Below, piece after piece: positions 5,948 to 33,607 of a stretch of 64,000 nt of DNA. The DNA comes from an uncultured Eubacteriales bacterium (GTDB lineage Bacteria > Bacillota > Clostridia > Oscillospirales > Oscillospiraceae): contig URAZ01000001.1 in assembly GCA_900545925.1 (NCBI GenBank), forward strand, positions 42,614 to 106,613. The letters run 5' to 3'. The position numbers and the translations under genes were made by a program. The notes beneath the pieces were generated by a model, which did no database searches, was not told the DNA's origin, and was given only the letters and a program-made list of their open reading frames with translations. Within the stretch, counting starts at the first letter, position 1. Each line of letters begins with the position of its first letter.

Positions 5948-7197
5948 CGCGGACGATACTGCCCGGCTTGCGCACAGGTGTGATTCGGATTCCCGCCTCC
6001 AAATCACAGGCGCACCGGATGCTGATCTGCGCAGCACTCTCTGCATCGCCGTCTCATTTGATTTTGGACGGCTTCAGCGCGGATATTGAAGCGACGATGC
6101 AGTGTCTGGAAGCGCTTGGCGCACGATGCGAAAAAATTTCGGACGGACTTCTTATTTCACCGGTCAGCGTTTGCCCAGCGCAGGCGCGGCTAGATGTAGG
6201 CGAAAGCGGATCGACACTGCGGTTTCTACTTCCAGTGCTTGGGGCACTTGGCATTCGGGCAGAAATTCAGATGCACGGGAGGCTCCCGGCACGTCCTCTG
6301 TCCCCGCTGTGGGAGGCTTTGGAGATGCACGGCATGCGGCTGCAGCAGGACGGGTCTGTCCTGCATACGGACGGGCAGTTGACCGCAGGAGACTATTCCC
6401 TGCCCGGCAATGTTTCCTCGCAGTTTATTTCCGGGCTTTTGTTTGCGCTGCCGCTTCTGAGCGGAAACAGCACGCTGACGGTCACGGGCGCGCTCCAATC
6501 GGCGCGGTACGTCGCCATGACGGAGCAGGCGCTTGCGGAAGCGGGAATTCTTATAAAAAAGGACGGGCCGGTCTGGCAGATCGGCGGTGAGCAGCGCTAT
6601 GCGGCGCCTTCTGTGCAGACGGTCGAGGGAGACTGGTCAAACGCGGCGTTTTTCCTGTGCATGGGCGCGCTGTCGGAGGCGGGCGTGACTGTAACGGGGC
6701 TGAATCCCGAATCGCTGCAGGCAGACCGGGCTATTACGGAAATTCTGACACGTTTCGGCGCAAAGTTAGCCATCTCTGAGCATGCCGTTATCGTGCGACG
6801 CGGAAATCTGCATGGAATCACGCTGGACGCAGGGCCGGTTCCGGATCTCATCCCAGTTGTCTCCTGTCTTGCCGCGCTTTGCAGCGGGGAAACGCAGGTT
6901 GAAAATGCAGCGCGGCTGCGGCTGAAAGAATCCGACCGTTTGCAAACGACGGCAGCGCTCCTTTCCGTGCTTGGCGGATGCGTACATGAATTGCCGGACG
7001 GTCTGGTTATTTTAGGCCGCGACCGCCTTTCCGGCGGAACGGCGGACGCTTGTGGCGACCACCGCATCGCCATGAGTGCGGCTATGGCCGCCTGCGGCTG
7101 CGAAGGCCTGGTTACGGTGTCTGGAAGCGAATGCGTCGCAAAATCCTATCCCGCATTCTGGGAGGACTTTGCTTCTTTGAAGGAGGATGCAGTATGA
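5944..7197 (+). CDS. aroA: 3-phosphoshikimate 1-carboxyvinyltransferase (EPSP synthase)
   Basis: EPSPS fold signatures (PASKSQAHR, GDHRIAMS). 417 aa. Confidence 0.9.
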   Translation: MTRTILPGLRTGVIRIPASKSQAHRMLICAALSASPSHLILDGFSADIEATMQCLEALGARCEKISDGLLISPVSVCPAQARLDVGESGSTLRFLLPVLGALGIRAEIQMHGRLPARPLSPLWEALEMHGMRLQQDGSVLHTDGQLTAGDYSLPGNVSSQFISGLLFALPLLSGNSTLTVTGALQSARYVAMTEQALAEAGILIKKDGPVWQIGGEQRYAAPSVQTVEGDWSNAAFFLCMGALSEAGVTVTGLNPESLQADRAITEILTRFGAKLAISEHAVIVRRGNLHGITLDAGPVPDLIPVVSCLAALCSGETQVENAARLRLKESDRLQTTAALLSVLGGCVHELPDGLVILGRDRLSGGTADACGDHRIAMSAAMAACGCEGLVTVSGSECVAKSYPAFWEDFASLKEDAV

Positions 7198-13923: not shown

Positions 13924-13929
13924 CATCGA

Positions 13930-13962
13930 AGCGGCCCCTGTGAAATGCAGGGGCCGCTTTTG
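13930..13962 (+). terminator. intrinsic terminator
   Basis: GCGGCCCCTG tgaaatg CAGGGGCCGC followed by TTTTGTT. Confidence 0.6.
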
Positions 13963-13982
13963 TTCTATGCGAAAAAGCAGTT

Positions 13983-14014
13983 TGCAGGGGCCGATGCCCA
14001 CATCGGCCCCTGCA
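13983..14014. repeat. REP-like palindromic element, copy 1
   Basis: TGCAGGGGCCGATG-CCCA-CATCGGCCCCTGCA: 14-bp perfect stem, 4-nt loop, between convergent genes. Confidence 0.8.
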
Positions 14015-14037
14015 ACTTGTAACCGGGTTCAGGTATA

Positions 14038-14607
14038 TTATTTCTTCAATCTAAAACTCAGGCCATCATATTGTTGCCCGTCGACCTCTCGTGTGCCTAC
14101 GTTGCGATTGCATTCAACAAAGCCGAGCTTTTCAGCACAACGAATCATACGAACATTGCCTGACCAGGTCTGCGTGTAAATTTCGTCCGCGCCGATTTTT
14201 AACTGATAATTTATAAAGGCACACAGAGCGTTTGTGCCGATCCCATTGCCCCACAAATTGGGTTCGTAAAGACAAATTCCGACAGCCAGATGGACCGTCT
14301 GTCCACTCTCGGCTGCTCCGATCCATTCGTAGTTTTCGTCAATGTGATAGGCGTTTACCGAGCCGATATGCCTGCCGTTCCATTCGATCTCAAGCCTGTA
14401 ACGACGGACATCATCCGGACGATCTTTTCTGGATTCGTAGGACTCTGTCCATCTTCTGCGTTCGCTATCTTCGTCAGTATCTTCCTTTTCCCAAGGAGCA
14501 TCCCAGTTTTCCCATTCGCGCTCCACGGTGAACCAGCGTACATAGTCTTCAATGTCGGACTCTATCATATCCCGAAGGATAATGTTTTCAAATTCGATCC
14601 TCATCAT
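14038..14607 (-). CDS. GNAT family N-acetyltransferase
   Basis: RimL-like acetyltransferase fold residues (VHLAVGICLYEPNLWGNGIGTNAL...KLGF). RBS AAAGGAG before the ATG at 14607. Confidence 0.8.
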   Translation of the reverse strand: MMRIEFENIILRDMIESDIEDYVRWFTVEREWENWDAPWEKEDTDEDSERRRWTESYESRKDRPDDVRRYRLEIEWNGRHIGSVNAYHIDENYEWIGAAESGQTVHLAVGICLYEPNLWGNGIGTNALCAFINYQLKIGADEIYTQTWSGNVRMIRCAEKLGFVECNRNVGTREVDGQQYDGLSFRLKK

Positions 14608-14691
14608 GAACTCCTTTGCGTTTAATCCAGAGGCTTGTATACAGTAACTGCTTTGAGATACGCCTTGGCGCACGCGCCGGGCGCGTCTGTT

Positions 14692-14958
14692 TTATATGTG
14701 TGCTGAAATCCAGTCGTACATTTCGTGGTAGGCCGCTTCGTTCAGGGGGAAGGTTTTTTCATCCTCCATCTGGCTTTTTTCGTAGCAGTATTCGCCGTGC
14801 CAGCATTCGCATTTCATGCTGCTCTCGTCGAAGTTGACCTCCTTCTGCGTCAGCATGACGATGTTCGGCGTGACGCGGAAGCGGAGTTTGCCATAGCTTC
14901 CGGTAAAGATGTTGTTGTTTTCAAAGCTGTGCAGCACCGGCAGAAATAACGGTTCCAT
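14692..14958 (-). CDS. hypothetical Cys-rich small protein (88 aa)
   Basis: RBS GAGGAGGG 9 nt before the ATG. Upstream consensus-like promoter TTGCCG-N17-TATGAT on the minus strand. Same orientation as the downstream GNAT gene, likely an operon. Confidence 0.6.
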   Translation of the reverse strand: MEPLFLPVLHSFENNNIFTGSYGKLRFRVTPNIVMLTQKEVNFDESSMKCECWHGEYCYEKSQMEDEKTFPLNEAAYHEMYDWISAHI

Positions 14959-15085
14959 ATGCGTCTGCCCTCCTCTTTTTGTGTATCATACCACAATTTC
15001 CGCCGCACGGCAAGATTGTTTGACTTTGCCCGCGCGGTATGCTATGATTGCTTGGATTCTTTTTTACGATAAAGGGGCAAAGGCA

Positions 15086-15982
15086 ATGCAAAAGCAGACA
15101 AAAGGCAGTATTCTGCTTCTCCTGTGCGCCATGATCTGGGGCGCGGCGTTCGTCGCTCAGAGCGAGGGCATGCAGTATGTTGGACCATTTACGATGGGCG
15201 CGACGCGTTTTTTTCTGGCGGGGCTTGTGCTTCTGCCGGTCATTGCTGTGCTCGACCGCAAGGGTTGGTCGCAGAACCGCGCGGTCACGCAATCGGATAA
15301 GAAAAAGCAGCTGCTGGCCGGCGTGATCTGCGGCGTGCTGCTGTTCGCGGCGACGACGCTCCAGCAGTTCGGCCTTCTTGATACAACGGTCGGAAAATCC
15401 GGATTTGTAACGGCACTTTATATCGTGTTCGTCCCCATTCTGGGTGCGGTCATAGGCAAGCGTGCCGGACTGCGGGTCTGGCTCTGCGCACTGGCTGCTG
15501 TGTGCGGAATGTATCTGCTGTGTGTCGGCTCCGGCTTTTCGGTTTCAGGCGGCGATCTGCTGACGCTTGGGTGCGCGGTACTGTTCGCAATTCATATCTG
15601 CTATGTCGGCGCGGTCGTGCCGCATATGGACGGTGTGCGGCTAAGCTGCGTGCAGTTCCTGGTCTGCTCCGCGCTGTCGGCGGTCGGTATGCTCCTGTTT
15701 GAAGCGCCAGACTGGGGTTCCATTTTACAGTGCTGGTGGCCCATTGTCTATGCGGGTGTTTTCTCCGGCGGCGTGGCATATACGTTTCAGATCATCGGCG
15801 AACGTGACGTGCAGCCAACGTTGGCGTCTCTGCTTATGAGCCTGGAATCCGTCTTTGCCGCCCTGTTCGGCTGGCTGCTGCTCAACCAAACGCTCTCCGC
15901 ACGGGAACTGTTCGGCTGCGCGGTCATGTTCGCGGCGATTATTCTGTCGCAGCTGCCGGAGAGGCGGAAGGGCGCTGTGTAA
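15086..15982 (+). CDS. EamA/DMT family transporter
   Basis: Ten predicted TM segments. Two EamA-like repeats. Promoter TTGACT-N17-TATGAT at 15023-15052. Confidence 0.8.
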   Translation: MQKQTKGSILLLLCAMIWGAAFVAQSEGMQYVGPFTMGATRFFLAGLVLLPVIAVLDRKGWSQNRAVTQSDKKKQLLAGVICGVLLFAATTLQQFGLLDTTVGKSGFVTALYIVFVPILGAVIGKRAGLRVWLCALAAVCGMYLLCVGSGFSVSGGDLLTLGCAVLFAIHICYVGAVVPHMDGVRLSCVQFLVCSALSAVGMLLFEAPDWGSILQCWWPIVYAGVFSGGVAYTFQIIGERDVQPTLASLLMSLESVFAALFGWLLLNQTLSARELFGCAVMFAAIILSQLPERRKGAV

Positions 15983-16083
15983 AGCGACCCGGTACGGTGC
16001 TTCCGTACCGGGTCTTGTTTATTGGAGCAGTTGGCAGGGGCGGGGCTCCGCCTGATGGGCAGTTGAAAATATGCACAGCATTC

Positions 16084-16115
16084 TGTAGGGGCCGATGCCT
16101 ACATCGGCCCCTACA
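16084..16115. repeat. REP-like palindromic element, copy 2
   Basis: TGTAGGGGCCGATG-CCTA-CATCGGCCCCTACA between convergent EamA and ispF. Confidence 0.8.
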
Positions 16116-16159
16116 AACAGATATGTAGGTGCTTACGGATTCGCTGTAAATTTTTTTGC

Positions 16160-16627
16160 TTATTCAATCAGGCAGACAGTGTGGGCGGCGATGCCTTCGC
16201 CGGAGCCGGTAAAGCCGAGGCGTTCTTCGGTCGTCGCCTTGACGCTGATGTTTCCGATATCGGTGCGCAGCGCATCGGCAATATTCCGGCGCATCTGCGC
16301 GATATACGGCGCAAGCTTTGGCCGCTGGGCGATGATGGTCGCGTCGAGATTGCCGAGGCGGTATCCGGCCTCTGCCAGTCTCCGGCTGACCTCGCGCAGC
16401 AGCTCCATGCTGTCCGCGCCGAGATAGCGGTCGTCGTTATCCGGGAAAAGCTTGCCGATGTCGCCCATGGCCGCCGCGCCGAGCAGCGCGTCCATGACGG
16501 CATGGACAAGCACATCCGCGTCGGAATGACCGTCCAGTCCCTTTTCATACGGGATCGTCACGCCGCCGAGAATCAGCACCCGGCCGGATACGAGCCGGTG
16601 AACGTCATAGCCATGGCCGATTCTCAT
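16160..16627 (-). CDS. ispF: 2-C-methyl-D-erythritol 2,4-cyclodiphosphate synthase
   Basis: [12 protein letters not shown]...[11 protein letters not shown]: canonical IspF metal-binding motifs. Confidence 0.95.
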
Positions 16628-17361
16628 ACGCCCGCCCTCCTGCGCAGGATCAGCGCAGCCAGTTCCAGATCGAGCGGCGTTGTAATCTTCAGATTTTCTT
16701 CATCGCCGTCGGTCAGCTGCACGGGCATGCCGAGCGCTTCGACAGCGCTGCAATCATCCGTGATTGCAATTTCCTGTTCTTTCGCATTCTGAAGCGCTGC
16801 GGCAAGCAGATCACGGTCGAAAACCTGCGGGGTTTGGACGGCGTAGAGTTTGCTGCGGTCGGGCGTTTCCTCAACTGCGCCATCTGTCGAGACTTTGATG
16901 GTGTCCTTGACGCGCACAGCGGGCGCTGCTGCACCGAACTTTTTTGCCTTGGAAACAGCGCGGCAGATGACTGCGTCGGTCACGAGCGGCCGTGCGCCGT
17001 CGTGGACGGCAACAAGCTGCGTGCGGTCAGAAACAGCTGCAAGTCCCGCCATGACGGAATCTGTCCGCGTCTCGCCGCCCGCGACGACCATGCGCATTTT
17101 GTCATACGCTTTGAGATACCGGCTGACCTTTTCCAGCAGTTCCTGCTGCGTGACAACGATAATCTCATCGATCATGGCGCACTTATCAAACACGTCAACC
17201 GTCCGGCAGATGACCGGCAGGTTTTCCAGCACCGTCAGAATCTTATTCGTACCGCCCATGCGCGAGGATGTGCCTGCGGCGACGATCACGGCAGCACAGT
17301 AGGACCGCCCAATCTTCTCCTTGATTGCAAGCCCCTTGCGGAGCCTTTCGCTGAGTTTCAT
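16624..17361 (-). CDS. ispD: 2-C-methyl-D-erythritol 4-phosphate cytidylyltransferase
   Basis: [15 protein letters not shown] nucleotidyltransferase motif. ATG at 17361 after CAGGAGAAAACAGGT. Overlaps the ispF start by 4 nt. Confidence 0.9.
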
Positions 17362-17377
17362 ACCTGTTTTCTCCTGT

Positions 17378-18751
17378 TCACAGCCCTTGCACGAGCGTTT
17401 TATAGGTTTCCCCGCGCACCATAAAATTCTTGAACTGGTCAAATGCGGCGCAAGCTGGGGAAAGTGTCACGATATCCCCGGGGACAGTATACTGCTTTGC
17501 CAACCGTACCGCTTCTTCGAGCGTCTGCGCATGCAGAATTTCGGGCTGCCCATTCAAATAGTTCGGCGCAGACTTGACCGCTGCTTCGATCTTCTCCGCC
17601 GTCGCGCCGCAGAGAATCAAAAGGCGCACATGCGCACAGATCTCCGGCCCCAGCACATCAAACGGTATTTTTTTATCATATCCGCCTGCGATCAAAACCA
17701 GCTTCTGATGGAATGAATGCAGGCCCGCGATCGTGCGCGATGGGCTGGAGGCGATGGAATCGTTATAATATTTCACACCGTCCAGTTCCCGGACAAACTC
17801 AATCCGGTGCTCCACTCCCGCGAATGTGCGCGCAATCTCGTCGATATCTTCTTCTGTCGCAAGCCCCTCAACAGCGCAGGCGGCGGCCATATAGTTTTCG
17901 ATATTGTGGACACCCGGGATGCGGATATCCGCAGCGGCCATGATCCGCTTCCCATTTCTGTAGATCACGCCGTCTTCCAGATATACGCCGTTTTCCGGCT
18001 TTGTCTGCCGGGAGAAGTACTCCACTGTTCCGTTTGCATCAGCTGCAAAACCGCGCGTAATAGCATTGTCGTAATTCAGAATAACCTTTCCGGCTTCACT
18101 CTGATGCGCAAAGACGTTTTTCTTGGCCTGCACATACTCTGCCATGTCCTTATGCACATCCAGATGGTTCGGAGCCACGTTCGTCACAACGGCAATATCG
18201 GCTGAGCGCTCCATCGTCATAAGCTGGAAGGAACTGAGTTCGACAACAGCAATGTCTGTCGGCGTCATGTCCGCTGCCTGCGGCAGAAGCGGCGCGCCAA
18301 TATTGCCGCCGAGCCAGACGCGATGCCCCGCATGCTCAAGAATTTTCGCAATCAACGTCGTGGTGGTCGTTTTGCCGTCGGATCCGGTCACGGCGATGAT
18401 ATGGCAGGGGCAGACCTCGAAAAATACCTCCATCTCGCTGGTAATCTCCGCACCGCTTTCACGCAGCTGGCGCAGCGCCGGGATATCTGGGTGCATGCCG
18501 GGGGTGCGGAAGACAATATCGGCCTGCACATCGTCAAGATAATGTTCCCCAACGTGAAGCACAGCACCTGCCTGCTCCAGTTCCAGAACCTCCGCGTCAA
18601 GTTTTTCGCGCGGCGTTTTATCACAGGCCAGAACACAGATGCCGCGCGCAAGGAGCATGCGAATAAGCGGCCGGTTGCTCACGCCAATGCCGAGCACAGC
18701 GACTCTTTTATCGGTAAGGGAATCAAAATACTGATCAACAAGATGATTCAT
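17378..18751 (-). CDS. murD: UDP-N-acetylmuramoyl-L-alanine--D-glutamate ligase
   Basis: VAVLGIGVSNRPLIRMLLARG N-terminal Rossmann domain and GSDGKTTT Mur ligase motif. ATG at 18751 after AAGAGG. Confidence 0.9.
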   Translation of the reverse strand: MNHLVDQYFDSLTDKRVAVLGIGVSNRPLIRMLLARGICVLACDKTPREKLDAEVLELEQAGAVLHVGEHYLDDVQADIVFRTPGMHPDIPALRQLRESGAEITSEMEVFFEVCPCHIIAVTGSDGKTTTTTLIAKILEHAGHRVWLGGNIGAPLLPQAADMTPTDIAVVELSSFQLMTMERSADIAVVTNVAPNHLDVHKDMAEYVQAKKNVFAHQSEAGKVILNYDNAITRGFAADANGTVEYFSRQTKPENGVYLEDGVIYRNGKRIMAAADIRIPGVHNIENYMAAACAVEGLATEEDIDEIARTFAGVEHRIEFVRELDGVKYYNDSIASSPSRTIAGLHSFHQKLVLIAGGYDKKIPFDVLGPEICAHVRLLILCGATAEKIEAAVKSAPNYLNGQPEILHAQTLEEAVRLAKQYTVPGDIVTLSPACAAFDQFKNFMVRGETYKTLVQGL

Positions 18752-18818
18752 ATCCAAAAGCCTCTTTTATCATTTCCTGTCTGTATTATATCCGCGCGGG
18801 AAAGAAATTGCAATCCAT

Positions 18819-18847
18819 TTGACTTTTTCCTGCAAATAAAGTACAAT
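18819..18847 (+). promoter_or_regulatory. promoter of rnpB (TTGACT-N17-TACAAT)
   Basis: Hexamers read directly from the sequence. Predicted TSS about 18854. Confidence 0.5.
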
Positions 18848-18851
18848 ACTT

Positions 18852-19214
18852 CCGCGACCGGGTCGGACAGTCGCGGGCGCAGCGCCGAAAGGCCGCGCAT
18901 GAGGAAAGTCCGGGCTCCGCAGGGCAAGGATAACGGGTAACGCCCGCCCAGAGCGATCTGAGGAAAAGTGCAACAGAAATAAACCGCCGGAGGCAGTGTA
19001 AGCTGTCTCCAGCAAGGGTGGAAAGGTGCGGTAAGAGCGCACCCAATGGCGTGCGAAAGCGTCCATTGCTGTAAACTCTATCCGGAGCAACACCGCAGAG
19101 GAAGCAAGGCTTGCCCGGCTGCTTCCGAGAAGGTGGCTGGAGCGCACCGGCAACGGTGCGCCTAGATAGATGACTGTCGATGACAGAACCCGGCTTATAG
19201 ACCCGATCGTAAAA
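18852..19214 (+). ncRNA. rnpB: RNase P RNA (bacterial)
   Basis: Universally conserved GAGGAAAGUCCGGGCUCC (P4 5' strand) at 18909-18926 and ACAGAACCCGGCUUA (P4 3' strand) near 19182-19196. Terminal helix pairs CGACCGGGUCGG with AGACCCGAUCG. Confidence 0.85.
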
Positions 19215-19250
19215 GCGCCTCCGCTGAAAAGCGGGGGTGTTTTTTTGTTG
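19215..19250 (+). terminator. intrinsic terminator after rnpB
   Basis: CCTCCGCTgaaaAGCGGGGG followed by TGTTTTTTTG. Confidence 0.6.
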
Positions 19251-19468
19251 GTGATTTAAGGACTTTTCTGATGCAATCACTCATATTAGAAATTTGTGAC
19301 TGCCCTTCAGCATTTTCTTTTGCTTCTCCAAAAGAAAACGAGCCCGGATGGATTTCGATTTCCCTCCGGCCCTCCTTGAACCGACCTGAAAAACCTCTTC
19401 GGTTTTTCTGGACTTTTCCCGCGAAATTTGGAGCAGTTCAGAATTTCCGACGCTACTCTTATGCGCTT

Positions 19469-19500
19469 CGTAGGGGCCGATGCCTACATCGGCCCCTACG
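19469..19500. repeat. REP-like palindromic element, copy 3
   Basis: CGTAGGGGCCGATG-CCTA-CATCGGCCCCTACG, 14-bp stem. Confidence 0.8.
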
Positions 19501-19667
19501 GAACTCCGGCGAATTCGTACTACTCTTCACATTTTTAACGCAAGGCGTTTTTTCCGCAGATATTAAATCGTAACTGCTCACAATCTGTTGTACCGTAACC
19601 AGCGCCTCTTTTCTCCCGCTTCTTTTCCGGCAAGGCGAAAAAAAGCGACCGCCGGAGACATGACCAA

Positions 19668-19700
19668 CCGGAAAATGCGCCCGACAAGACTGTCAGGCGC
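19668..19700 (-). terminator. hairpin terminator downstream of clpE
   Basis: AAATGCGCC ... GGCGCATTT inverted repeat flanked by A/T runs. Confidence 0.45.
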
Positions 19701-19708
19701 ATTTTGAA

Positions 19709-22042
19709 TTATACGGTTTCCAGTTTGATTTTCCCGTCCTCGCAGGTTGCTTTGATAGAACTGAACGGATCAACATAGCTTTTGATGATACGTTCGGCGA
19801 TGGGGTCTTCAAGGTCGGTCTGGATGGCGCGGCGGAGATTGCGCGCACCATAGGACACAGAATAGGATTTCTTGACAAGATAATCCTTGACGCTCTCGTC
19901 CCACGCGAATTCGATACCGCGGCTCTCCAGCGACTGCTTGAGTTCCGAGAGCATAATATCTGCAATGCCGCGGAAGTTCTCCTCGCTCAGCTGGTTGAAG
20001 CAGACGATCTCGTCAACGCGGTTGATAAACTCAGGCCGCAGGAACTCACTCAGCGCCTTCATGGCCTTTTCCTTCGACTGCTCGGTCAGGCTGCGGCCAA
20101 AGCCGACGCTGCCGCCCTTCTGGCTGGAGCCTGCGTTGGAAGTCATGATGATGATGGTGTTTTCAAAATTGACGACTCTCCCCTGTGCATCAGTGATGCG
20201 GCCATCATCGAGGATCTGAAGCAGGATATTCAGTACGTCCGGATGAGCCTTTTCTAGTTCGTCAAACAGAATGACGGAATACGGACGGCGGCGGATCTTT
20301 TCGGTCAGCTGTCCGGCCTCGTCATAGCCGACATAGCCAGGAGGCGATCCGATGATCTTCGAGACGCTGTGCTTTTCCATGTATTCGGACATATCAAGCC
20401 GGATGAGCGACTCGACCGACTCAAACATCTCGCTGGCAAGGCGTTTGACAAGTTCCGTCTTACCAACGCCGGTCGAACCGACGAAGATGAAGGAAACAGG
20501 ATGCTTCTTGACCTGAATGCCGACGCGGGAGCGGCGGATAGCAGACACAACGGAGGCAATCGCCTCGTCCTGCCCAACAATATGCTTTTTGAGTTCTGCG
20601 TCGAGGTTCAAAAGCTGCTCATATTCCTGCGCACGGATCTTGCTTGCGGGAATCTTTGTCCAGAGTTCAATGATGCGGGCCAGATTATCAATCGTCAACG
20701 CGGGTTTTGGCAGCTTTTCCAGTTCTGCAATCTCAGAGTCCAGTTGAAGGTTCCGGCTGCGGAGTTCCGCCATGCGGGCATAATCGTCCTGCGTCTTTTC
20801 GGCGTTCTCCGTGAGCATGGAAAGTTCCAGATCGTAATCGGCATGCTCCTTTTTAAGCGCTTCGAGTCTGCCAATGTTCTTATTTTTCAGGTTCACATCC
20901 GAGCATGCTTCATCGATCAGGTCGATGGCCTTATCCGGCAGGAAACGGTCGGTAATGTAGCGTTCGGAGAGCAGAACGGCCTGGCGCGCAATCTCCGGCG
21001 AGATCACGACACCGTGGAACGTCTCATAATAATGGCTGATGCCGCGGATGATGGCGATGGACTGCTCGATGGTCGGCTCGGCGACGGTGACGGGCTGAAA
21101 GCGGCGTTCGAGTGCAGCGTCTTTTTCGATATGTTTGCGGTACTCGTTGAAAGTCGTTGCTCCGATGACCTGGATTTCCCCTCGTGAGAGCGCTGGCTTC
21201 AGGATATTGGCGGCGTTCATGGATCCCTCTGCATCGCCTGCGCCGACGAGATTATGCACTTCGTCAATGACCAGAATAATATTGCCGAGTTTTTTGACCT
21301 CTTCAATGAGGCCCTTCATGCGGCTTTCAAACTGCCCCCGGAACTGCGTGCCCGCGACGAGGGCCGTGAGATCCATGAGATAGACCTCTTTGTTCTGAAG
21401 CTTATACGGGACGTCCTTGTCGGCAATTTTCTGTGCAAGGCCCTCAGCGATGGCAGTCTTACCGACACCTGGTTCGCCGATGAGACAAGGGTTATTCTTC
21501 TGGCGGCGGTTGAGAATCTGGATGACACGCTCCGTCTCCTCTTCGCGGCCGATGATGCGGTCAAGCTTGCCGTCACGCGCTTTCTGCGTCAGATTCTGGC
21601 AGTAGGTGTCAAGGAATTTATGCTTCTTGTTCTTGCTGTTCGGCTTGTCACCGGAGCGCTGGCGGCTCTCGGTTTTTTCCGGCTCCGGGACGGCAGGCGT
21701 ATTATCCTGCCCCTGACCGGCGGCTCCGAAAAGTTTATTGAGGAAGGGGAACGTGGCAGTCTGGCTGTCCGCTTCGTCGTCTTCGCCATCCTCCTCCGGG
21801 TCGCGGCTCTGGCCGAGCAGGCCTTCCAGTCCATTCATCGCCTCGGTCATCTCACCGTTGAGGTTCTCAAGGTCATCCTCGGAGAGTCCCATCCGCTCGA
21901 TCATATCATCGACAGGCTTGATGCCCATCTCCTTGGCGCATTTGAGGCAAAGGCCCTCGTTGACGGTTTTTCCGCCGTCGATCTTCGTTATAAAAATGAC
22001 TGCAAGATTCTTTTTGCATCTTGAGCACAGGGTCGGTTTCAT
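19709..22042 (-). CDS. clpE: ATP-dependent Clp protease ATP-binding subunit, ClpE-type (N-terminal zinc finger + two AAA+ modules)
   Basis: N-terminal CxxC...CxxC (CSRCKK...CLKCAKE). Two Walker A boxes ([16 protein letters not shown]). ClpB/ClpC-family sensor motifs. ATG at 22042 after AAGGAGAA. Confidence 0.9.
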
Positions 22043-22248
22043 AAAAGGCTTCTCCTTATCGCGTTTCCTTAGCGTCGCTTGAAAAGAGCACGCAGGCATA
22101 CCGGCTGTACGTCAAGGACGATAACGCTGCGAAAGGCGTGCCGGAACGTCCAGAGGGCATGTGCGCTCTTGTCAAACGACGCCATAAAGTATATCACAGT
22201 CAGGCCGTCGTATCTTTGCAGAATTGTAAACGTTTTTTGGAAAATTAT

Positions 22249-23412
22249 TTACGGGACATACAGTGCCCCATGGCCATTGGCCAGCAGAATTGCGGAGCCG
22301 TCCTCGCGCATCACAGCGCTGGACGCACCGGTCGTGTTGTCGGAAACATCATATTCTTTCAGATTCTGATCATAAATAGCAAGAGATCCGCTTGTCAGAA
22401 GCGCAAGATACCGGCCGGAAGCAGAAATATCCAAGATCTGCTCGCTGGTTGGGAGCGTGCCCAGTACCGTCCCGTCGTACCCGACAGTCAGGACGGTATA
22501 GCGGTTTCCGGCCTTATAGAGATTCATGACAAGCGTAACAAATCCAGAGCCGTCCAATGTGTAGTCCTTGAGATAGTCATCCTCAAAGGCATAGCTTCCG
22601 AGGCACTGACCATCCAGATCGTAAAAATACAGCGCATCTTCGCACAGGACACAGAGCGCATTTCCGGACAGAAAATGCAGATCGTAGATCAGGGCATTCC
22701 CGATGGGGATGGTGCGGAGAATTTCCTCGGAATCTGTCTGGAAGAGAACGATAGAGGACTGGAACATGCCGTCCTCCTGCCCTAGCGCGGCAGCAGCGGC
22801 GTATTTTGCCCCGGAAGAGACGGTGCAGCGCATGAAATACTGACTCGACGAGAGCCATCGGTAGATCAAAGCCTGCTGGCTATTATAGACATAAAGCACG
22901 GAACGGTATCCGGATTCGCTGGATAAATAGCAGATGCTGCCGTCAGACGCAATATCTGCGTCGAGAATCGGCTTCTGCGAGGAAATATGCAGAACGGAGC
23001 CGTTTTTCTGGCTGGCAGCCTCCAGTGTATTTCCGCCGGTATCATAGGCCATCGCAATTTCGCCGCCGGTTTTCAGGACCGGTGCGGACATGGACGCCTG
23101 AATGGATGCAGTCTCCACACCGTCCTTGTCATAGAGGCTGAGTCCCGTTGCGGAGGCAACAGAAAGTCCGCCGGACAGATCAGCATAGCGGTTGGAGTTG
23201 CTCTCGTCGTAGACGAAGCGCCCCGTTTTGCTGTCCTCGGAGACGTTCAGATAGCGCACATAACGCTGCAGCGCGTCCAGATTCAGCCGGTCACGAAACA
23301 CATAAGCCGCTACACCGCCCGTGACAAGCACAAGCAGGAGCGCAAATACAGCGATCCGCTTCCCAAGTCCCGGATGCTTCTGCGCATGCAGCTGCGAGAC
23401 ATTATCCGACAT
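22249..23412 (-). CDS. hypothetical membrane-anchored protein with repetitive beta-rich (propeller-like) extracytoplasmic domain
   Basis: One N-terminal TM helix (IAVFALLLVLVTGGVAAYVF), then 350 aa rich in Y/D/G/S/L repeats. Overlaps the truA stop. Start could be 23433 or 23412. Confidence 0.6.
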   Translation of the reverse strand: MSDNVSQLHAQKHPGLGKRIAVFALLLVLVTGGVAAYVFRDRLNLDALQRYVRYLNVSEDSKTGRFVYDESNSNRYADLSGGLSVASATGLSLYDKDGVETASIQASMSAPVLKTGGEIAMAYDTGGNTLEAASQKNGSVLHISSQKPILDADIASDGSICYLSSESGYRSVLYVYNSQQALIYRWLSSSQYFMRCTVSSGAKYAAAAALGQEDGMFQSSIVLFQTDSEEILRTIPIGNALIYDLHFLSGNALCVLCEDALYFYDLDGQCLGSYAFEDDYLKDYTLDGSGFVTLVMNLYKAGNRYTVLTVGYDGTVLGTLPTSEQILDISASGRYLALLTSGSLAIYDQNLKEYDVSDNTTGASSAVMREDGSAILLANGHGALYVP

Positions 23413-24168
23413 GGAAAACCGCCCTTCCGTCATCGTACCAAAGCTGTGTCATGTAAAGCCCGCCGGGCGGGACCGTCGGACCGGCTGCCGTCCGATCACC
23501 ATTCAGGAGAATCTGCGCGACAGCCTCCGGCGGGAACTTTCCTTCCGCAGCATAGACGCAGGTACCAGCCATGGCGCGGGCCATGTTATAAAGAAAGCCA
23601 TTGGCACTGACGCGCAGCGAAATCAAATCGCCGTCGCGTTCGACCTTGTAATCGTAGACCGTTCTCACAGTGGATTTCACATCTGTACCAACCGACCGAA
23701 CAGCGGCAAAGTCGTGCGTGCCGATAAAGCAGTCAGCCGCACGCTGCATGATCTTCTCGTTCAAATGCTTGGGATAAAACCACGCGCGATTGACATAAAA
23801 CGGATCGCGGATGCCGGAATTATAGATCAGATATGTATATTCCTTTTTGACGCAGGAGCCGATTGCATTGAAGTCCTCATGCACCTCCATCGCATCCGTC
23901 ACGACAATATCCTCCGGCAAGTGCGTGTTGAGCGCATACGGGATGCGGTCACATGGAATGCGGGCAGAGGTGCGGAAATTGGCGACGTAGACGCGTGCGT
24001 GAACGCCTGCATCCGTGCGGCCGCAGCCGGTCATATGCACCGGATGGCCGACGACGGCAGCTGCCGCCTCTTCAAGCGTCTGTCCGACGGTCGTGACCGT
24101 CTTCTGCACTTGCCAGCCGTGATAGGCCGTGCCGAGATATTTAAGCGTCAGGGCAATATTGCGCATAC
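23402..24168 (-). CDS. truA: tRNA pseudouridine(38-40) synthase
   Basis: MRNIALTLKYLGTAYHGWQVQ and GRTDAGVHA catalytic Asp motif. RBS AAGGAAG. Confidence 0.9.
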
Positions 24169-24227
24169 AAAACTTCCTTATTATCAAAAGTAATTGGCTT
24201 AATGTGAGAACAGTCAAAAAACTTCCG

Positions 24228-25760
24228 TTATCTTGTGTTCTCGCCGCCAAGTTGGAACGAACGGTACTGGACAGCCTCGGCGATGTGCTCGGGGCGGATC
24301 TGGTCGCTGCCCGCAAGGTCGGCAATGGTGCGGGCAACCTTGAGAACACGGTCATAACTACGGGCCGTCATGCCAAGTGCGTCAAACGCCTGTTTCATAA
24401 GGTCGGTGCAGGCCTCGTCCAGCTGGCAGAACGTGCGCAGCTGCGCGGGCTGCATATAGGCGTTGCAGCGAGTCGATGTGCCGCTGTAGCGTGTGTTCTG
24501 GATGTTTCTTGCTGCATCGACTCTGGCCTTGATAGCGGACGACGGTTCTGCCTCTGTCCGGGAACGCAATTCGTCAAACTTAACGGAACTGACCTCGACG
24601 ATCATGTCTACACGGTCGAGCATGGGTCCGGAAATACGGCTCAGATAGCGGTCAACCGCTGCCTGCGAGCAAGTACACCGGCCGCTGGGATCGCCGTACC
24701 AACCGCAGGGACAGGGGTTCATAGCGCAGACCAGCATGAACTCACAAGGGAATGTCTGTGAGCCCTGCACCCGGGAAATGGTGACCTGTCCGTCCTCAAG
24801 CGGCTGGCGCATGGATTCGATGGCATCCCGGCGGAACTCCGGCAGCTCGTCGAGGAACAGCACGCCCTTGTGCGCAAGGGAAATTTCGCCAGGCCGGACG
24901 TTCGCTCCGCCTCCGGCCAGCGCGGCTGCCGAGACGGTATGGTGCGGGCTGCGGAACGGGCGCGATTCGATGAGCGGATGATCCGGGCGCAGAAGACCCA
25001 TGACGGAATAGATCTGCGTGACGTCCAGCTGCTCCTGCCGCGTCATATCAGGCAGGATGGATGGCAGGCGCTTGGAAAGCATGCTCTTACCGGAACCCGG
25101 CGGGCCTACCAGAAGAATATTATGCCCGCCTGCTGCCGCAATTTCAAGTGCCCGCTTGGCATTTTCCTGCCCCTTTACATCCTTGAAGTCCAGAAGCTGC
25201 TGTGTTCTCTGCTCCGGCTGCCAGACGGGTGCGGGATCGATCGGTGTCTGGCCGGTCAGGTGCGCAGTTAACTGCCGGATATCCTTCACGCCGTAGACGG
25301 TCAGACCACCCGCAAGCGTGGCCTCTCGTGCGTTATCCTCCGGGACGTAAAGTTCCTCATAGCCAAGCCGCTTTGCGGCCAGTGCCATCGGCAGCACGCC
25401 CGGGACAGCGCGCAGCACGCCCTCCAGACTGAGTTCTCCGAGGAACGCGCAAGGCTTTTTCGGAAGCTTCACCTGTTCAGAAGCAGCCAGGATGGACAAG
25501 AGAATCGGCAGGTCATAAAGCGTGCCGGATTTTTTCGTCCCCGCCGGAGCAAGATTCACGATAATACGGCTGACAGGAAACCGGAAACCGCAGTTTTTGA
25601 TCGCGGCGCGCACCCGCTCGCGCGCCTCTTTAACGGACGCATCCGGCAGGCCGACCAGATCGAACGCCGGAAGTCCCGTGCCGATGTAGCATTCCGTCTG
25701 CACCTCATATCCGTTGACGCCTGATAGGCCGAGTGAGAGCACCTTACTGAGCATCTGCAT
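24228..25760 (-). CDS. comM: YifB/ComM family Mg-chelatase-like AAA+ ATPase
   Basis: N-terminal Lon-like domain, then Walker A GPPGSGKS and sensor motifs. 510 aa. Start at MQM or MLSKV (GGAGGG RBS). Confidence 0.85.
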   Translation of the reverse strand: MQMLSKVLSLGLSGVNGYEVQTECYIGTGLPAFDLVGLPDASVKEARERVRAAIKNCGFRFPVSRIIVNLAPAGTKKSGTLYDLPILLSILAASEQVKLPKKPCAFLGELSLEGVLRAVPGVLPMALAAKRLGYEELYVPEDNAREATLAGGLTVYGVKDIRQLTAHLTGQTPIDPAPVWQPEQRTQQLLDFKDVKGQENAKRALEIAAAGGHNILLVGPPGSGKSMLSKRLPSILPDMTRQEQLDVTQIYSVMGLLRPDHPLIESRPFRSPHHTVSAAALAGGGANVRPGEISLAHKGVLFLDELPEFRRDAIESMRQPLEDGQVTISRVQGSQTFPCEFMLVCAMNPCPCGWYGDPSGRCTCSQAAVDRYLSRISGPMLDRVDMIVEVSSVKFDELRSRTEAEPSSAIKARVDAARNIQNTRYSGTSTRCNAYMQPAQLRTFCQLDEACTDLMKQAFDALGMTARSYDRVLKVARTIADLAGSDQIRPEHIAEAVQYRSFQLGGENTR

Positions 25761-25895
25761 CCCTCCGCTTTTTTCTTCGCATCTATCATAGCGCATTTCA
25801 CGTTAAAAACCAACAGGTTTTTCAAAACTTGCCGGAACGAGACGCAAAATTTCGTAAGATTTCCGCCAAATCCAAAAAGGTTATTCCAAATTTGA

Positions 25896-25924
25896 TTTAC
25901 ATTGACAAGAAAATGTGATATAGT
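25896..25924 (+). promoter_or_regulatory. promoter of the PFOR gene (TTTACA-N17-TATAGT with TGn extension)
   Basis: Hexamers at 25896-25901 and 25919-25924. TG sits 1 nt upstream of the -10. Confidence 0.45.
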
Positions 25925-25966
25925 CAAGGTGCATGAATATGTAATTACTTTTAGGAGGTAATTGTT

Positions 25967-29590
<3,624 letters not shown>

Positions 29591-29602
29591 TTATCTCCTA
29601 TG

Positions 29603-29645
29603 CAAAACGGGCGGTACCTTCGGGTACCGCCCGCCTTTTATTATT
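29603..29645. terminator. bidirectional intrinsic terminator between convergent genes
   Basis: AAACGGGCGGTACC ttcg GGTACCGCCCG flanked by A-run and T-run. Confidence 0.7.
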
Positions 29646-29654
29646 TTTATAGTA

Positions 29655-31760
29655 TCATTTGTAGGTTTCTTCGAGATACAGCTGGACGCGGCGCTGGATG
29701 CGGTCTGTGATCTGTTTGGCAGTCTGCTCGTCCGCAAAATAATACGGCAGTTCATCGGCAAGAATCCCATCAACAGCTGCATCATAGTCAAATGCGGACA
29801 CAGCCTCCGCCTGCAGTTCGCGCAGGAGATTCTGTGCGGTGGTATCTGTCATGGCATCCGTCTTTTTCTCAAAGTCCGACTGTATCGGCAGCCAGCCGCC
29901 GCGGCTGCGCGCGGCGTAGAGCGGCTCGGTGATCAGGAGCATCAGGAACGCCCACGCGCCCTCCTTTTCCTGCGCATTGACCGGGATGGCCATCGGAAGC
30001 GTCAGATAGAAGCTGGCGCGTCCCGCACCCGGAAAGCCAGGGATGGCAAGCCGGTTCAGACCGTCTTCGTATTCTTCTTCAAAATACTGTGCACGGCCGA
30101 TCATCAGCTGCTCCAGCAGCGCCTGACCGGTCAGCAACGCTTCACGGGGCGATTCTGCCTCCGGCTGCGTCTGCCGCTTCGCGAGCTCCAGCAGACGGAG
30201 AAAATCAGGAGAATCGAAACTCGCCCGCACCGTCTCGTAATCCACAAAGGCATCCGGCGCATAAAGGAGCAGCAGCTGGAGCATGGACGCGCCGTCGTCC
30301 TGCGCGAAGACGGAACCGATCTCCGGATGCGCCTGCGCGGTATCCAGAAAATCCGCCATCGACCATGCCTCCCGGCCGCCGACGATATCCGGCAGACCGG
30401 CGGCCGTCGCAAGCAGGTAGGTCTGCGGCAGGCGGTACAGCGCGCCGTCCGTTTCGAGCGCGCGCAGAAGATTTTGTGTGAAATCTGTACGGGAAAGCGT
30501 TTCGTCCGCGTCGATCCACGTATACAGGTCTTCCAGCAGCCCCTGACGGGCATACTGTGCAAACGGCAGGCCGTTTACAAACAGCAGATCGGGACAATCT
30601 CCGTACAATAGATCCATCAAAAGCTGCTGGTCGGCCTGTTCGCCGTACTGCGCCTCATAATCGACGAATTCGGCCCGATATTCCGGATACAGGGACGAAA
30701 AATCACGAACAGCCATGGAGAAAATGTTGCTGCGGCTGCCTGCGATGCGGATCAGGCGCTTTTCCGAAAAATCACCCTCCGCCGGAGTCAGCCAGAACAG
30801 GCGGTGCTGCGTCCCTTCGTCCTCCGATGGGTAAAACTCCAATCCGAGGTACTGTCCGTTCCCCATGCCGCAGAAGGCTTCGACATCCATGGCGTACAGG
30901 CCGACCGTATCGCAGGCAAACAGCTGCGTCACGGCGTTCTCCGCGATCTGCCAGCCGAAGCAGACGTCGTTGGCAAAGACAAGGCAGTCATACGGCGTAT
31001 TTTCACCCGGATAGAGCATTTCAATCCCGGTGCGGAACAGATCGGGCAGCGGACACAGCGGCTGGATTTCATCATCCGCTATGGAATAAAGCATCTGCTC
31101 ACTCTGTGCCCAGGCCAGAAGCGCACCGTCCCGCACATGGAAGAATCGTTTAATCTCTGTGGCAGGCTGCTTCCAGAGAAGCGTTCCGTCCATGGTGCAG
31201 GCGAGAACGCAGGAACCGTCCGCGGCAAGTAGCAGCGCTTCATTCTGCACCGCCATGGCGGTCAGATTGGAAACGCCGGACAGGGCTTCGTCCAGCACGC
31301 GCGTCTGTCCGTCGGCGTGGAGCAGCCACTGTTCGCCGTCCGGGGTCTGACGCGATTCGATGTAATACAGCCGCTCCCCTGCCAGCGCCGCCTGCACGGC
31401 AAGGCCGTCCGGAGAAATCGGAAGTTCCTGCACGGTGCAGGCGTGTTCCGGCGTGTAATACGCCGCTGCTTCCGTCCGAAGCGGTTCGTCCGCACTGCCT
31501 GTGATCATACTGCCGGTCAGGACGGCTCCGCCGGAATACGGCAGCAGTGCGGTGCCCACCGTCATCCCCTCCGGCTCCGTGCGGGCCAATCGGTACTGCG
31601 CAGCCGGGATGCGGACGGAAACGCCGGAAACAGTCTGCTCCGTCTCCCCTGCCGCTGTCTGTGCGCTGCCGGGCTGCGTTGCAGGCAGTGTTTCTTTTTT
31701 GCAGGCAGTGCACATGAAAAGGATCAACATTGCCAATACGAACGCACGGAATCGCTTCAT
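29655..31760 (-). CDS. large lipoprotein: N-terminal beta-rich domain + C-terminal extracellular solute-binding-protein-like domain
   Basis: Signal peptide and Cys (LILFMCTAC). The C-terminal 400 aa resemble family-1 ABC substrate-binding proteins. RBS AAGGAGG. Confidence 0.7.
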   Translation of the reverse strand: MKRFRAFVLAMLILFMCTACKKETLPATQPGSAQTAAGETEQTVSGVSVRIPAAQYRLARTEPEGMTVGTALLPYSGGAVLTGSMITGSADEPLRTEAAAYYTPEHACTVQELPISPDGLAVQAALAGERLYYIESRQTPDGEQWLLHADGQTRVLDEALSGVSNLTAMAVQNEALLLAADGSCVLACTMDGTLLWKQPATEIKRFFHVRDGALLAWAQSEQMLYSIADDEIQPLCPLPDLFRTGIEMLYPGENTPYDCLVFANDVCFGWQIAENAVTQLFACDTVGLYAMDVEAFCGMGNGQYLGLEFYPSEDEGTQHRLFWLTPAEGDFSEKRLIRIAGSRSNIFSMAVRDFSSLYPEYRAEFVDYEAQYGEQADQQLLMDLLYGDCPDLLFVNGLPFAQYARQGLLEDLYTWIDADETLSRTDFTQNLLRALETDGALYRLPQTYLLATAAGLPDIVGGREAWSMADFLDTAQAHPEIGSVFAQDDGASMLQLLLLYAPDAFVDYETVRASFDSPDFLRLLELAKRQTQPEAESPREALLTGQALLEQLMIGRAQYFEEEYEDGLNRLAIPGFPGAGRASFYLTLPMAIPVNAQEKEGAWAFLMLLITEPLYAARSRGGWLPIQSDFEKKTDAMTDTTAQNLLRELQAEAVSAFDYDAAVDGILADELPYYFADEQTAKQITDRIQRRVQLYLEETYK

Positions 31761-31795
31761 TGTTCTGTCCTCCTTAGGTTTACTTTTGTAAACTT

Positions 31796-31824
31796 ATCAT
31801 AGCATGTAAGTTTACTCTTGTCAA
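31796..31824 (-). promoter_or_regulatory. consensus promoter (TTGACA-N17-TATGAT) of the lipoprotein gene, with a palindrome at the TSS
   Basis: On the minus strand: TTGACA (plus 31819-31824), 17-nt spacer, TATGAT (plus 31796-31801). GTTTAC-tttt-GTAAAC at 31778-31793 and a further GTTTAC at 31810-31815. Confidence 0.5.
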
Positions 31825-31987
31825 CCTTTTAAGACATATCAACTTTCAGACTGATGCAGCGCCCAATGGCTTCCACCGGTGTGCAAAAACGTATGTAGTT
31901 GGCAGGGGCGTGGCTCTTCTCCTCCCGATTGAAAACAGTTTCTTTAACGGCATTTTGGTAAATGCGAATGCAGTATCCCATTCGTTC

Positions 31988-32017
31988 GTATGGGCCGATG
32001 CCTATATCGCCCCGGCA
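31988..32017. repeat. REP-like palindromic element, degenerate copy 4
   Basis: TATGGGCCGATG-CCTA-TATCGCCCCGGCA. The 5' arm is conserved, the 3' arm decayed. Confidence 0.55.
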
Positions 32018-32059
32018 GAATGCACGATTTTACGGAAAATGCAAAAAATTCATATCTTT

Positions 32060-32094
32060 CCAACGGGCCGATGTGGGCATCGGCCCATACAACC
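32060..32094. repeat. REP-like palindromic element, copy 5
   Basis: CGGGCCGATG-TGGG-CATCGGCCC with matching flanks. Confidence 0.7.
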
Positions 32095-32261
32095 AAGCGA
32101 GTAAGGGCACACGAATTCGCCGAATAGCTTCTGTTTTTACAGTTACCTGCCGCTTGACCACTCAAGCACTTCGCGCCAACTCTCCCTTCAGGGGAGCCTT
32201 GGGAAGGGTGCAAAAAACAGGCGCTGCCGGAGCAGCGCCTGTCTGGGACTTGGTTGTGGAA

Positions 32262-33293
32262 TTAGCCCAGTTCGGAGAAGTACTTGATGGTGCGGACCAT
32301 CTGGCTGGTGTAGGAGTTTTCGTTGTCGTACCAGGAAACGACCTGAACCTGGGTGTCGCCGTTCGGCAGGGGCAGAACCATGGTCTGCGTTGCATCGAAC
32401 AGGGAGCCGTAGCGCATGCCGATGATGTCGGAGGAAACGATCTCGTCGGTGTTGTAGCCGAAGGACTCGGTAGCTTCCGCCTTCATCTGGGCATTGACCT
32501 GCTCAACGGTGACAGCACCCTTGACAACTGCGTTCAGGATGGTGGTGGAGCCGGTCGGGGTCGGGACACGCTGTGCGGCGCCGATGAGTTTGCCGTTCAG
32601 TTCCGGGATAACGAGGCCAATGGCCTTGGCAGCACCGGTGGAGTTCGGGACGATGTTGACAGCGGCTGCACGGCTGCGGCGGAGGTCACCCTTGCGCTGC
32701 GGGCCGTCGAGCGGCATCTGGTCGCCGGTGTAGGCGTGGATGGTGCACATAATGCCGGACTCGATAGGAGCCAGATCGTTCAGAGCCTTGGCCATCGGAG
32801 CGAGGCAGTTGGTGGTGCAAGAAGCAGCGGAGATGATGGTGTCTTCCTTGGTCAGCGTCTTGTGGTTGACGTTGTAAACGATGGTGGGCAGATCGTTGCC
32901 GGCCGGAGCGGAGATAACGACCTTGCGGGCACCTGCATCGATATGGGCCTGTGCCTTGGCCTTGCTGGTATAGAAACCGGTGCACTCGAGGACGACATCA
33001 ACGCCAAGCTTGCCCCAGGGCAGATCAGCTGCGTTCGGCATCTTGTAGATGACGATCTTCTTGCCGTCAACAACGATGTAGTTGTCTTCGCCTTCGCCCT
33101 CATGGTACTCAACGGTGTGGCCCTGCGCAACATAGTTGCCCTGCGTGGAGTCGTACTTCAGCAGGTGCGCGAGCATCTTCGCAGAAGTCAGGTCGTTGAT
33201 GGCGACGACTTCGTAGCCCTCAGCGCCAAACATCTGACGGAACGCCAGACGGCCGATACGGCCAAAACCATTGATTGCAACTTTAACAGACAT
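32262..33293 (-). CDS. gap: glyceraldehyde-3-phosphate dehydrogenase, type I
   Basis: [18 protein letters not shown]-binding motif. [10 protein letters not shown] active-site Cys. RBS AAGGAGGAA. Confidence 0.95.
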
Positions 33294-33458
33294 AATGAAT
33301 TTCCTCCTTATTACCTGCCGGCTGGATGCCGGCCAATATACTGTGTGTTCCACAACATTCTGCTAAATTATACCGCATTATTCTTCTGCTGTCCAGTATT
33401 ATTTTACCCAAAAACCAACGGTTTCTGCCTTAAAATCTTTACAATTTCGTCTGTTTGT

Positions 33459-33475
33459 CCAAACAATTTGTTTGG
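33459..33475. promoter_or_regulatory. perfect inverted repeat CCAAACAA-T-TTGTTTGG between divergent gap and ABC transporter genes
   Basis: 8-bp arms, 1-nt spacer. Read directly from the sequence. Confidence 0.35.
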
Positions 33476-33607
33476 CTGGCTGAAAAAGTTTTGAAAGCAG
33501 TAAATTTTCTGTAAACATCGCAGAAATCAGTCTGTGATTCCATAGATTTGTTCATAAATCCAGTGTATTCTAACTCTGTTTATTTTGAATTGAAGGATCG
33601 TGACCCA

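Follow-up and report, generated by a model that had tools for sequence, protein, structure and literature searches.

GTAG-headed extragenic palindromes in an uncultured Oscillospiraceae bacterium and their counterparts beside and within RAYT-like genes

Palindrome copies and their genes in the window

The DNA analyzed here is a 64-kb stretch (the window; positions 42,614 to 106,613 of contig URAZ01000001.1, assembly GCA_900545925.1) from an uncultured bacterium of the Oscillospiraceae that is often encountered in gut metagenomes. The subject is a short palindrome occurring in five copies, with the anatomy of a repetitive extragenic palindrome (REP). An earlier note, made from the letters of the sequence, had reported five near-identical copies. 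A scan of the window with the pattern GGGCCGATGNNNNCATCGGCCC (GGGCCGATG-N4-CATCGGCCC, at most 2 mismatches) confirmed them, returning exactly five matches at 13988, 16089, 19474, 31992 and 32065, of which four are exact and the one at 31992 is decayed (2 mismatches). No match was found in any of 100 dinucleotide-preserving shuffles, and the chance expectation is 0. A broader scan for GTAG-headed hairpins across the 64 kb revealed no copy beyond the five, and Rfam covariance models matched none of the copies, whether gathering scores or a limit of E 1 were applied.

Gene calls were taken from conspecific contigs, Pfam and Rfam, and they place all five copies between genes, as the earlier note had said. 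Copy 1 lies between a 126-aa gene (plus strand, ending at 13923) and a convergent GNAT acetyltransferase gene (minus strand, stop at 14038), copy 2 between the convergent genes for EamA (plus) and ispF (minus), and copy 3 between the RNase P RNA gene (18855-19213, plus) and a convergent clpB-like gene (minus). Copies 4 and 5 lie together between the co-directional genes for GAPDH (32262-33353, minus) and a solute-binding lipoprotein (29655-31760, minus). Three of the four loci are thus situated between convergent transcription units and one between co-directional ones. The earlier note had counted two copies between convergent genes directly after canonical terminators; separate canonical terminators do adjoin copy 1 (13928-13960) and copy 2 (15986-16014), and the convergent loci number three. 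The genes neighboring the copies are functionally unrelated to one another.

Copy 1 (13982..14015, plus strand) reads TTGCAG-GGGCCGATG-CCCA-CATCGGCCC-CTGCAA, with GCAG replacing GTAG on both sides, and has a perfect stem of 15 bp. Copy 2 (16084..16115, plus; TGTAG-GGGCCGATG-CCTA-CATCGGCCC-CTACA) and copy 3 (19469..19500, plus; CGTAG-GGGCCGATG-CCTA-CATCGGCCC-CTACG) carry GTAG on both sides and have perfect stems of 14 bp each. Each of these three has a 4-nt loop. As single-stranded DNA, copies 1 to 3 fold at -18 to -21 kcal/mol with z about -9. Copy 4 (31987..32013, plus; CGTAT-GGGCCGATG-CCTA-TATCGCCCC) is decayed and by itself has lost its folding (z -0.16), and copy 5 (32065..32091, minus; reverse complement TGTAT-GGGCCGATG-CCCA-CATCGGCCC) keeps a 9-bp stem and folds at -12 kcal/mol. 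The head tetranucleotide of both is GTAT. These two had been taken for a tandem pair about 45 bp apart; they are in fact inverted (loops CCTA and TGGG), with starts 73 nt apart, and form the left and right arms of a head-outward doublet with a 51-nt spacer (32014..32064). Folded together, they give one long hairpin (-30.3 kcal/mol, z -5.9).

When the copies were aligned with 50-nt flanks, homology was limited to the core and a short module on the right only. The flanks are unrelated beyond the core and this spacer module and do not align as one segment, which indicates that the five copies are independent insertions and not a duplicated segment, the outcome that the earlier note had named as speaking against a repeat family.

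The palindrome family in other genomes

The earlier note had also allowed for the palindrome being confined to the copies it listed. A search with the exact 22-nt core, one genome per species, found it well beyond the window: the matching stretches number at least 118 and come from at least 89 species-level assemblies. The carriers are almost all Oscillospiraceae, Ruminococcaceae or other Clostridia, and among the matches listed the few outliers are without the GTAG head and several assemblies hold 2-4 separate REP loci. Cultured carriers include Flavonifractor plautii ATCC 29863, Lawsonibacter hominis NSJ-51 and Pseudoflavonifractor sp. MSJ-30. Across loci, the median length of the longest open reading frame (ORF) over a REP is 591 nt, compared with 1182 nt at random positions.

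An alignment of 144 copies revealed that conservation ends at about 27 nt and that a perfect GTAG is present on exactly one side in 113 of them. After orientation by the GTAG head, the loops read CCCA (60 copies), CCCT (19), ACCA (14), CCTA (9) and TGGG (1). The unit is directional, 5'-Y-GTAG-GGGCCGATG-CCCA-CATCGGCCC-3', with a 9-bp GC-rich stem. The symmetric 30-bp palindrome proposed from the window copies does not describe the family, whose unit in other genomes is asymmetric, measures about 27 nt and has GTAG at only one of its ends. Where the stem varies, at two variable positions, the variants are Watson–Crick compensated within the same REP in 27 of 27 copies, which indicates that it is the local hairpin that is being maintained.

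REPs of this family are also often found as doublets, that is, head-outward inverted pairs with a start-to-start distance of 41 or 73-79 nt. Among 52 REP pairs listed at 25-200 nt, 20 are doublets spaced 72-80 nt. The spacer of the 73-79-nt doublets (...TTRCGAATTCGCCGAAGATTTCCGTAAAAAC..., about 50 nt) is conserved between genomes and contains a perfect palindrome, GGCGAATTCGCC; the spacer between copies 4 and 5 is homologous to it. In the consensus structure of the doublet, REP 1 is paired with REP 2. Singlets are common, and the compensatory changes preserve the stem of each single REP. The palindrome GGCGAATTCGCC was seen in doublet spacers at six loci (L003, L020, L050, L089, L098 and L101), and near-exact, partly truncated versions of it lie to the right of copy 3 (GGCGAATTCGTA) and of copy 5 (ACGAATTCGCC, 32111-32121). 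By analogy with the BIMEs of Escherichia coli, it may be a protein-binding module.

Searched with nhmmer, a doublet profile matched the whole doublet of copies 4 and 5 at E 3.6e-19. The same profile matched 16084-16185 over model positions 2-86 (E 4.8e-10), revealing a spacer remnant to the right of copy 2 (16116..16185, plus strand; ...TACGGATTCGCTGTAAATTTTT...), in which the second REP is absent and the end overlaps the 3' end of ispF. Copy 3 together with part of a spacer was matched as well. From these matches, copies 4 and 5 represent a doublet in decay; copies 2 and 3 resemble half-doublets, that is, they look like doublets minus one arm; copy 1 is a bare REP. The stretch attached to copy 3 (19501..19657, plus strand) contains a spacer-like module with GGCGAATTCGTA (19508-19519), and a further ~130 nt are about 80% identical to a locus from another genus (L058). 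The gene context of that homologous locus is different, so that 19501..19657 probably belongs to a longer mosaic element. In L058, the recurring segment comprises copy 3 and ~185 nt to its right (19474-19657), found at positions 457-750 with ~80% identity. On sequence grounds, this suggests longer, BIME-like mosaic repeats with a REP at one end.

RAYT-like genes and their embedded hairpins

A phmmer search with E. coli RayT over the loci fetched for the REP identified RAYT-like ORFs at L034, L036 and L012. The best solved relative of these proteins by sequence profile is 4ER8, E. coli TnpA-REP in complex with a REP hairpin (E 5.5e-10). An AlphaFold model was built for P0001, which is 97% identical to the L034 protein (pLDDT 83.5), and the top PDB fold match of this predicted model is again 4ER8 (Foldseek E 1.8e-7, TM 0.57), followed by the TnpA proteins of IS200/IS605 (IS608, ISDra2). 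The identity to E. coli TnpA-REP is only ~23%; residues H78, H80, Y143, N147 and P148, which make up the HUH and the Tyr...NP motif, are invariant.

The association between REPs and these genes takes two forms. At L195, doublets containing GGGCCGATG REPs stand on either side of the RAYT-like gene, a classical 'REPtron' arrangement. At three other loci (L034 4092-4580, L036 1932-2405 and L125 346-828), the exact window-type REP occurs twice inside the RAYT-like ORF itself. A further RAYT-like gene, at L012 (7033-7803, minus strand), lies 1 kb from an array of three REP copies in head-to-tail order, which repeat every 49 nt with identical spacers (5957-6076); its site-1 peptide (see below), IVGRGLAPAE, differs from the GGGCCGATG-type motif, which suggests, at the peptide level, that this gene has another specificity. 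Nearby inverted REP pairs at L108 and L043 were considered as possible borders of RAYT genes and rejected, since they hold an XRE-type regulator and a DegV protein instead.

In L034 (Lawsonibacter), both REP copies are located within the ORF. The first (site 1) precedes the HUH motif, and its GTA GGG GCC GAT GTC CTC ATC GGC CCG is translated as V-G-A-D-V-L-I-G-P. The second (site 2) is an inverted copy just past the HUH motif and is translated as G-P-M-G-T-S-A-P-T. In the large clade of RAYT-like genes with this architecture, site 1 begins ~130 nt ahead of HUH with its GTA read as Val, and the inverted site 2 ends ~65 nt past HUH. In the AlphaFold model, site 1 forms the tip of a beta-hairpin and site 2 a low-confidence loop. 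Both site peptides are absent from the L195 relative, whose gene is flanked by REP doublets, and likewise from E. coli RayT. The absence from L195 identifies them as insertions.

The L034-type protein has 1251 homologues, and residues at the two sites were counted in the best 120 of them. The site-1 peptide is VGADVLIGP in 60 and VGGDVLIAP in 24, and the residue pair at this site is A..G in 72, G..A in 31 and G..G in none. At site 2, the pair is P..A in 95 and A..P in 10. This covariation of amino acids is explained by base pairing of the hairpin in DNA or RNA. A metagenome scan added 80 further, more distant relatives (32-50% identical), giving 82 genes. A GTAG-headed hairpin is present at site 1 in 43 of the 82, at site 2 in 53 and at both in 37, against a background of 0.13 GTAG-headed hairpins per kb. 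The reading frame is fixed in 41 of the 43 hairpins at site 1 and in 42 of the 53 at site 2. Furthermore, the 37 two-hairpin genes (among loci L125-L204) have 27 different stems, GGGCGATT being the stem of another RAYT-like gene, and the hairpins are 95% identical within one gene, compared with 44% between genes. Other arrangements were also detected, including the same hairpin located immediately beyond the ORF or at a distance from it, flanking copies only, and a single double-headed copy at site 2. In the homologues P0035, P0022, P0036 and P0033, in-frame tandem half-hairpin duplications (DVPIAPH twice or three times) and extra REP-coded peptides are present at site 1, a pattern that suggests slippage or repeated REP insertion there.

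We consider it likely that these genes form a self-embedded REP/RAYT system, in which the cognate hairpins sit in-frame as a head-outward inverted pair around the catalytic HUH strand, are kept as nucleic-acid structures and probably act in cis. The embedded hairpins may serve self-control of the enzyme, or may be overwritten by the same copy process that would homogenize genomic REPs. Two further ideas were examined. An origin of the doublets as internal-deletion derivatives of the hairpin-bounded RAYT-like segment was not supported, the spacer profile giving no significant match in the 82 genes (best E 0.099). An invertible switch with an alternative frame was discarded, since in silico inversion gives stop codons in 35 of the 37 genes and no alternative ORF. 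We found no description of the embedded arrangement in the REP/RAYT literature searched; the architecture seems to be undescribed, and it is an unexpected by-product of the REP analysis.

Interpretation and comparison with known systems

The five copies are very likely members of a GTAG-class REP family that is found in many Oscillospiraceae and related Clostridia and is probably acted upon by a RAYT-like enzyme. The anatomy of the unit, the selection on its hairpin, its distribution, its doublets and its physical association with RAYT-like genes in other genomes are observed. The proposal of the earlier note, a REP family or a small element resembling miniature inverted-repeat transposable elements, possibly a RAYT target, is supported by this anatomy, by the unrelated flanks, by the inverted doublets and by the RAYT-like gene link. 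As a mechanism, the REP unit would act as a hairpin in single-stranded DNA or RNA. A RAYT-like Y1/HUH enzyme, with its gene at another place in the genome, would bind it, by analogy with E. coli TnpA-REP (PMC3479197); the GTAG head would guide the cutting and rejoining of single-stranded DNA by this enzyme, and its action would spread, maintain and homogenize the copies. The presence of an active enzyme of this kind in the source genome is inferred, and so is any benefit to the host.

Several observations weigh against this interpretation. First, the window contains no RAYT-like Y1/HUH gene, so that the enzyme link rests on other genomes. The proteins found there score 49-71 bits (E 1e-13 to 1e-20) with NCBIfam NF047646 REP_Tyr_transpos, below its 80-bit equivalog cut-off, and stay under the gathering score of Pfam Y1_Tnp; on account of these curated cut-offs they are termed RAYT-like. 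Second, all 5 copies in the 64 kb lie inside 18 kb of the window, and the hundreds of copies genome-wide put forward in the earlier note are an extrapolation. Third, GTAG heads on both sides were found in only 7 of the 144 copies elsewhere, compared with the double-headed form of window copies 1-3 (GCAG in copy 1); as this form is rare elsewhere, the variant of the window species may behave differently. Finally, copies 1-3 are at identical positions in 6 of the 7 conspecific strains examined, and the seven strains revealed no clean REP-only insertion polymorphism or empty site.

In the seventh strain (L206), copies 1 and 2 are kept and a 460-nt segment with copy 3 is absent. This segment (~19248-19707) also holds the clpB-side terminator hairpin, both of its junctions share TTTTG, and L206 has a single bidirectional terminator between the RNase P RNA gene and clpB. 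In the sister species (L208-L213; IspF 85-86% identical), the syntenic clpB-RNase P-murD-ispD-ispF block is free of REPs and the synteny stops exactly at the 3' end of ispF, the site of copy 2. The copies are mostly kept among conspecifics and the sister species lacks them in this block, which indicates that they are gained or lost on the species time scale. The sister species does not define the exact REP ends, its intergenic DNA having diverged too far and its synteny breaking off at the 3' end of ispF. Downstream of ispF, L208-L213 differ by a ~1-kb insertion with a TnpV fragment.

Among the alternatives, the best supported is that the hairpins are RNA or DNA structures selected by the host independently of any transposase, as terminators or as barriers to 3' exonucleases at convergent transcript ends. 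The convergent setting of three of the four loci and the high stability of the hairpins agree with this, as does the minus strand of copy 1, in which the stem is followed by CTTTTT, scores as terminator-like and lies 22 nt past the GNAT stop. Copy 1 is, however, the only one in the window with a T-run after the stem; the other copies lack the T-run that directly follows the hairpin of an intrinsic terminator, and the family consensus has no T enrichment there. Copies 1 and 2 stand beside separate canonical terminators, the doublet is upstream of a gene, and the same sequence flanks or sits within RAYT-like genes. Furthermore, termination needs neither an invariant GTAG head nor a directional loop. 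As a full explanation we therefore regard it as unlikely; a transcript-end role is possible as a secondary, co-opted function of REPs, and copy 1 as terminator of the GNAT gene is a candidate host benefit.

A palindromic operator, bound as double-stranded DNA by a dimeric regulator, would fit the 9-4-9 palindrome of the core and the position of copies 4 and 5 ahead of a gene start. Against it, most copies are situated between the 3' ends of genes and beside functionally unrelated genes, and the element lacks symmetry, having GTAG on one side and a loop with a direction. An operator would moreover conserve base identity, whereas the stem variants are compensated in 27 of 27 copies, and we consider this explanation highly improbable. 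Even less probable is an origin as relics of degraded RAYT-like genes or of one segmental duplication, suggested by the same 26-30 nt within RAYT-like ORFs and by copy 3 inside a longer conserved stretch, and largely refuted by flanks that are unalignable past the spacer module, by the lack of a match of the doublet spacer profile in the 82 RAYT-like genes (best E 0.099) and by the absence of any RAYT-like ORF fragment around the window copies. CRISPR-like arrays were also considered as a reading and rejected.

The GTAG-class REP family is thus new for this bacterial group and of a kind already known. GTAG-class REPs typically have more than 100 dispersed copies per genome and bear the tetranucleotide GTAG or GTGG. 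They are known in E. coli, Pseudomonas and Stenotrophomonas (Nunvar 2010, PMC2817692; Di Nocera 2013, PMC3733652). The present family shares with them a 5' GTAG followed by a GC-rich stem-loop of 20-35 nt, extragenic sites mostly between convergent or co-directional genes, inverted dimers and association with RAYT genes; the head-outward pairing corresponds to 'HH' in the naming of PMC3733652. In contrast to the proteobacterial families, the host belongs to the Gram-positive anaerobe family Oscillospiraceae, an exact 22-nt core is common to at least 89 species-level assemblies, and the window unit is double-headed. The stem is also perfectly palindromic, whereas E. coli REPs typically have bulges. 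The words 'Firmicutes' and 'Clostridi' have zero occurrences in the text of the two surveys (PMC2817692 and PMC3733652), and in the REP/RAYT literature searched Clostridia appear in one line only (PMC5581495).

Like REPINs (Bertels and Rainey 2011, PMC3116915) and E. coli BIMEs, the doublets consist of inverted REPs with a short spacer that together form one long hairpin, and, as with REPINs, the singlets resemble decayed doublets. They differ from both in that the spacer is long (~50 nt), asymmetric, conserved between genera and provided with its own palindrome GGCGAATTCGCC, and in that compensatory changes preserve the stem of each REP and not the pairing of REP 1 with REP 2. Of the RAYT groups, those associated with REPINs (groups 2 and 3) belong to Proteobacteria (PMC5581495).

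With regard to the enzyme, GTAG is the guide sequence required for binding and cleavage by E. coli TnpA-REP (4ER8; Messing 2012, PMC3479197). The HUH and the catalytic Tyr of this protein are conserved in the RAYT-like proteins, most of which, unlike E. coli RayT, have two extra loops encoded by the REP hairpins themselves. In IS200/IS605 elements (IS608, ISDra2), a Y1/HUH enzyme likewise recognizes imperfect single-stranded hairpins with a short guide at the hairpin foot; here, in contrast, the hairpins are dispersed at a distance from any transposase gene and tnpB is not involved. In-frame palindromes translated as surface loops are also found in Rickettsia palindromic elements (RPEs) and intragenic REPs (PMC3733652). 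Here, in contrast, the palindromes lie in the gene of their own cognate enzyme, both sites keep the same position and reading frame throughout a diverged family, and the two hairpins co-vary with each other.

A few other features of the window were recorded. The RNase P RNA gene is of bacterial class A (265.6 bits), and a 164-aa minus-strand ORF overlying it (18786-19280) is spurious. In the clpB-like gene, the start of the longest ORF is placed too early. A plus-strand ORF that spans the doublet (31962-33494) is also spurious, the real gene being GAPDH on the minus strand with its terminator at ~32205-32245, and the REP-translated motifs GPMPISP and ADVGIGPY can seed false protein predictions. 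The solute-binding protein gene has a candidate operator immediately ahead of its start, namely a 21-nt imperfect inverted repeat (31776-31827; AGGTTTACTTTTGTAAACTTA / TAAGTTTACTCTTGTCAACCT). Two similar, perfect or near-perfect hairpins, at 46602-46638 (AGAAAAACCCGTAATC...) and 58160-58191 (AAAACCTGTAATC...), each adjoin a tRNA gene (46648-46736, minus, and 58081-58151, plus, respectively) and are probably shared tRNA terminators.

REP and RAYT biology has so far been almost entirely proteobacterial, and the family described here shows that REP-type elements are common in abundant Clostridia of the human and animal gut, culturable strains included. In practice, the REP hairpins break assemblies and create spurious ORFs, with translated motifs such as VGADAHIGP and GPMGTSAPT, and they may mark transcript ends. 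The RAYT-like genes with embedded hairpins provide dozens of natural enzyme/target pairs, which makes RAYT-REP recognition and co-evolution directly testable. Whether they serve self-control or are overwritten by the copy process, the embedded hairpins would, if the proposed system is true, amount to a natural table pairing enzyme variants with their DNA targets.

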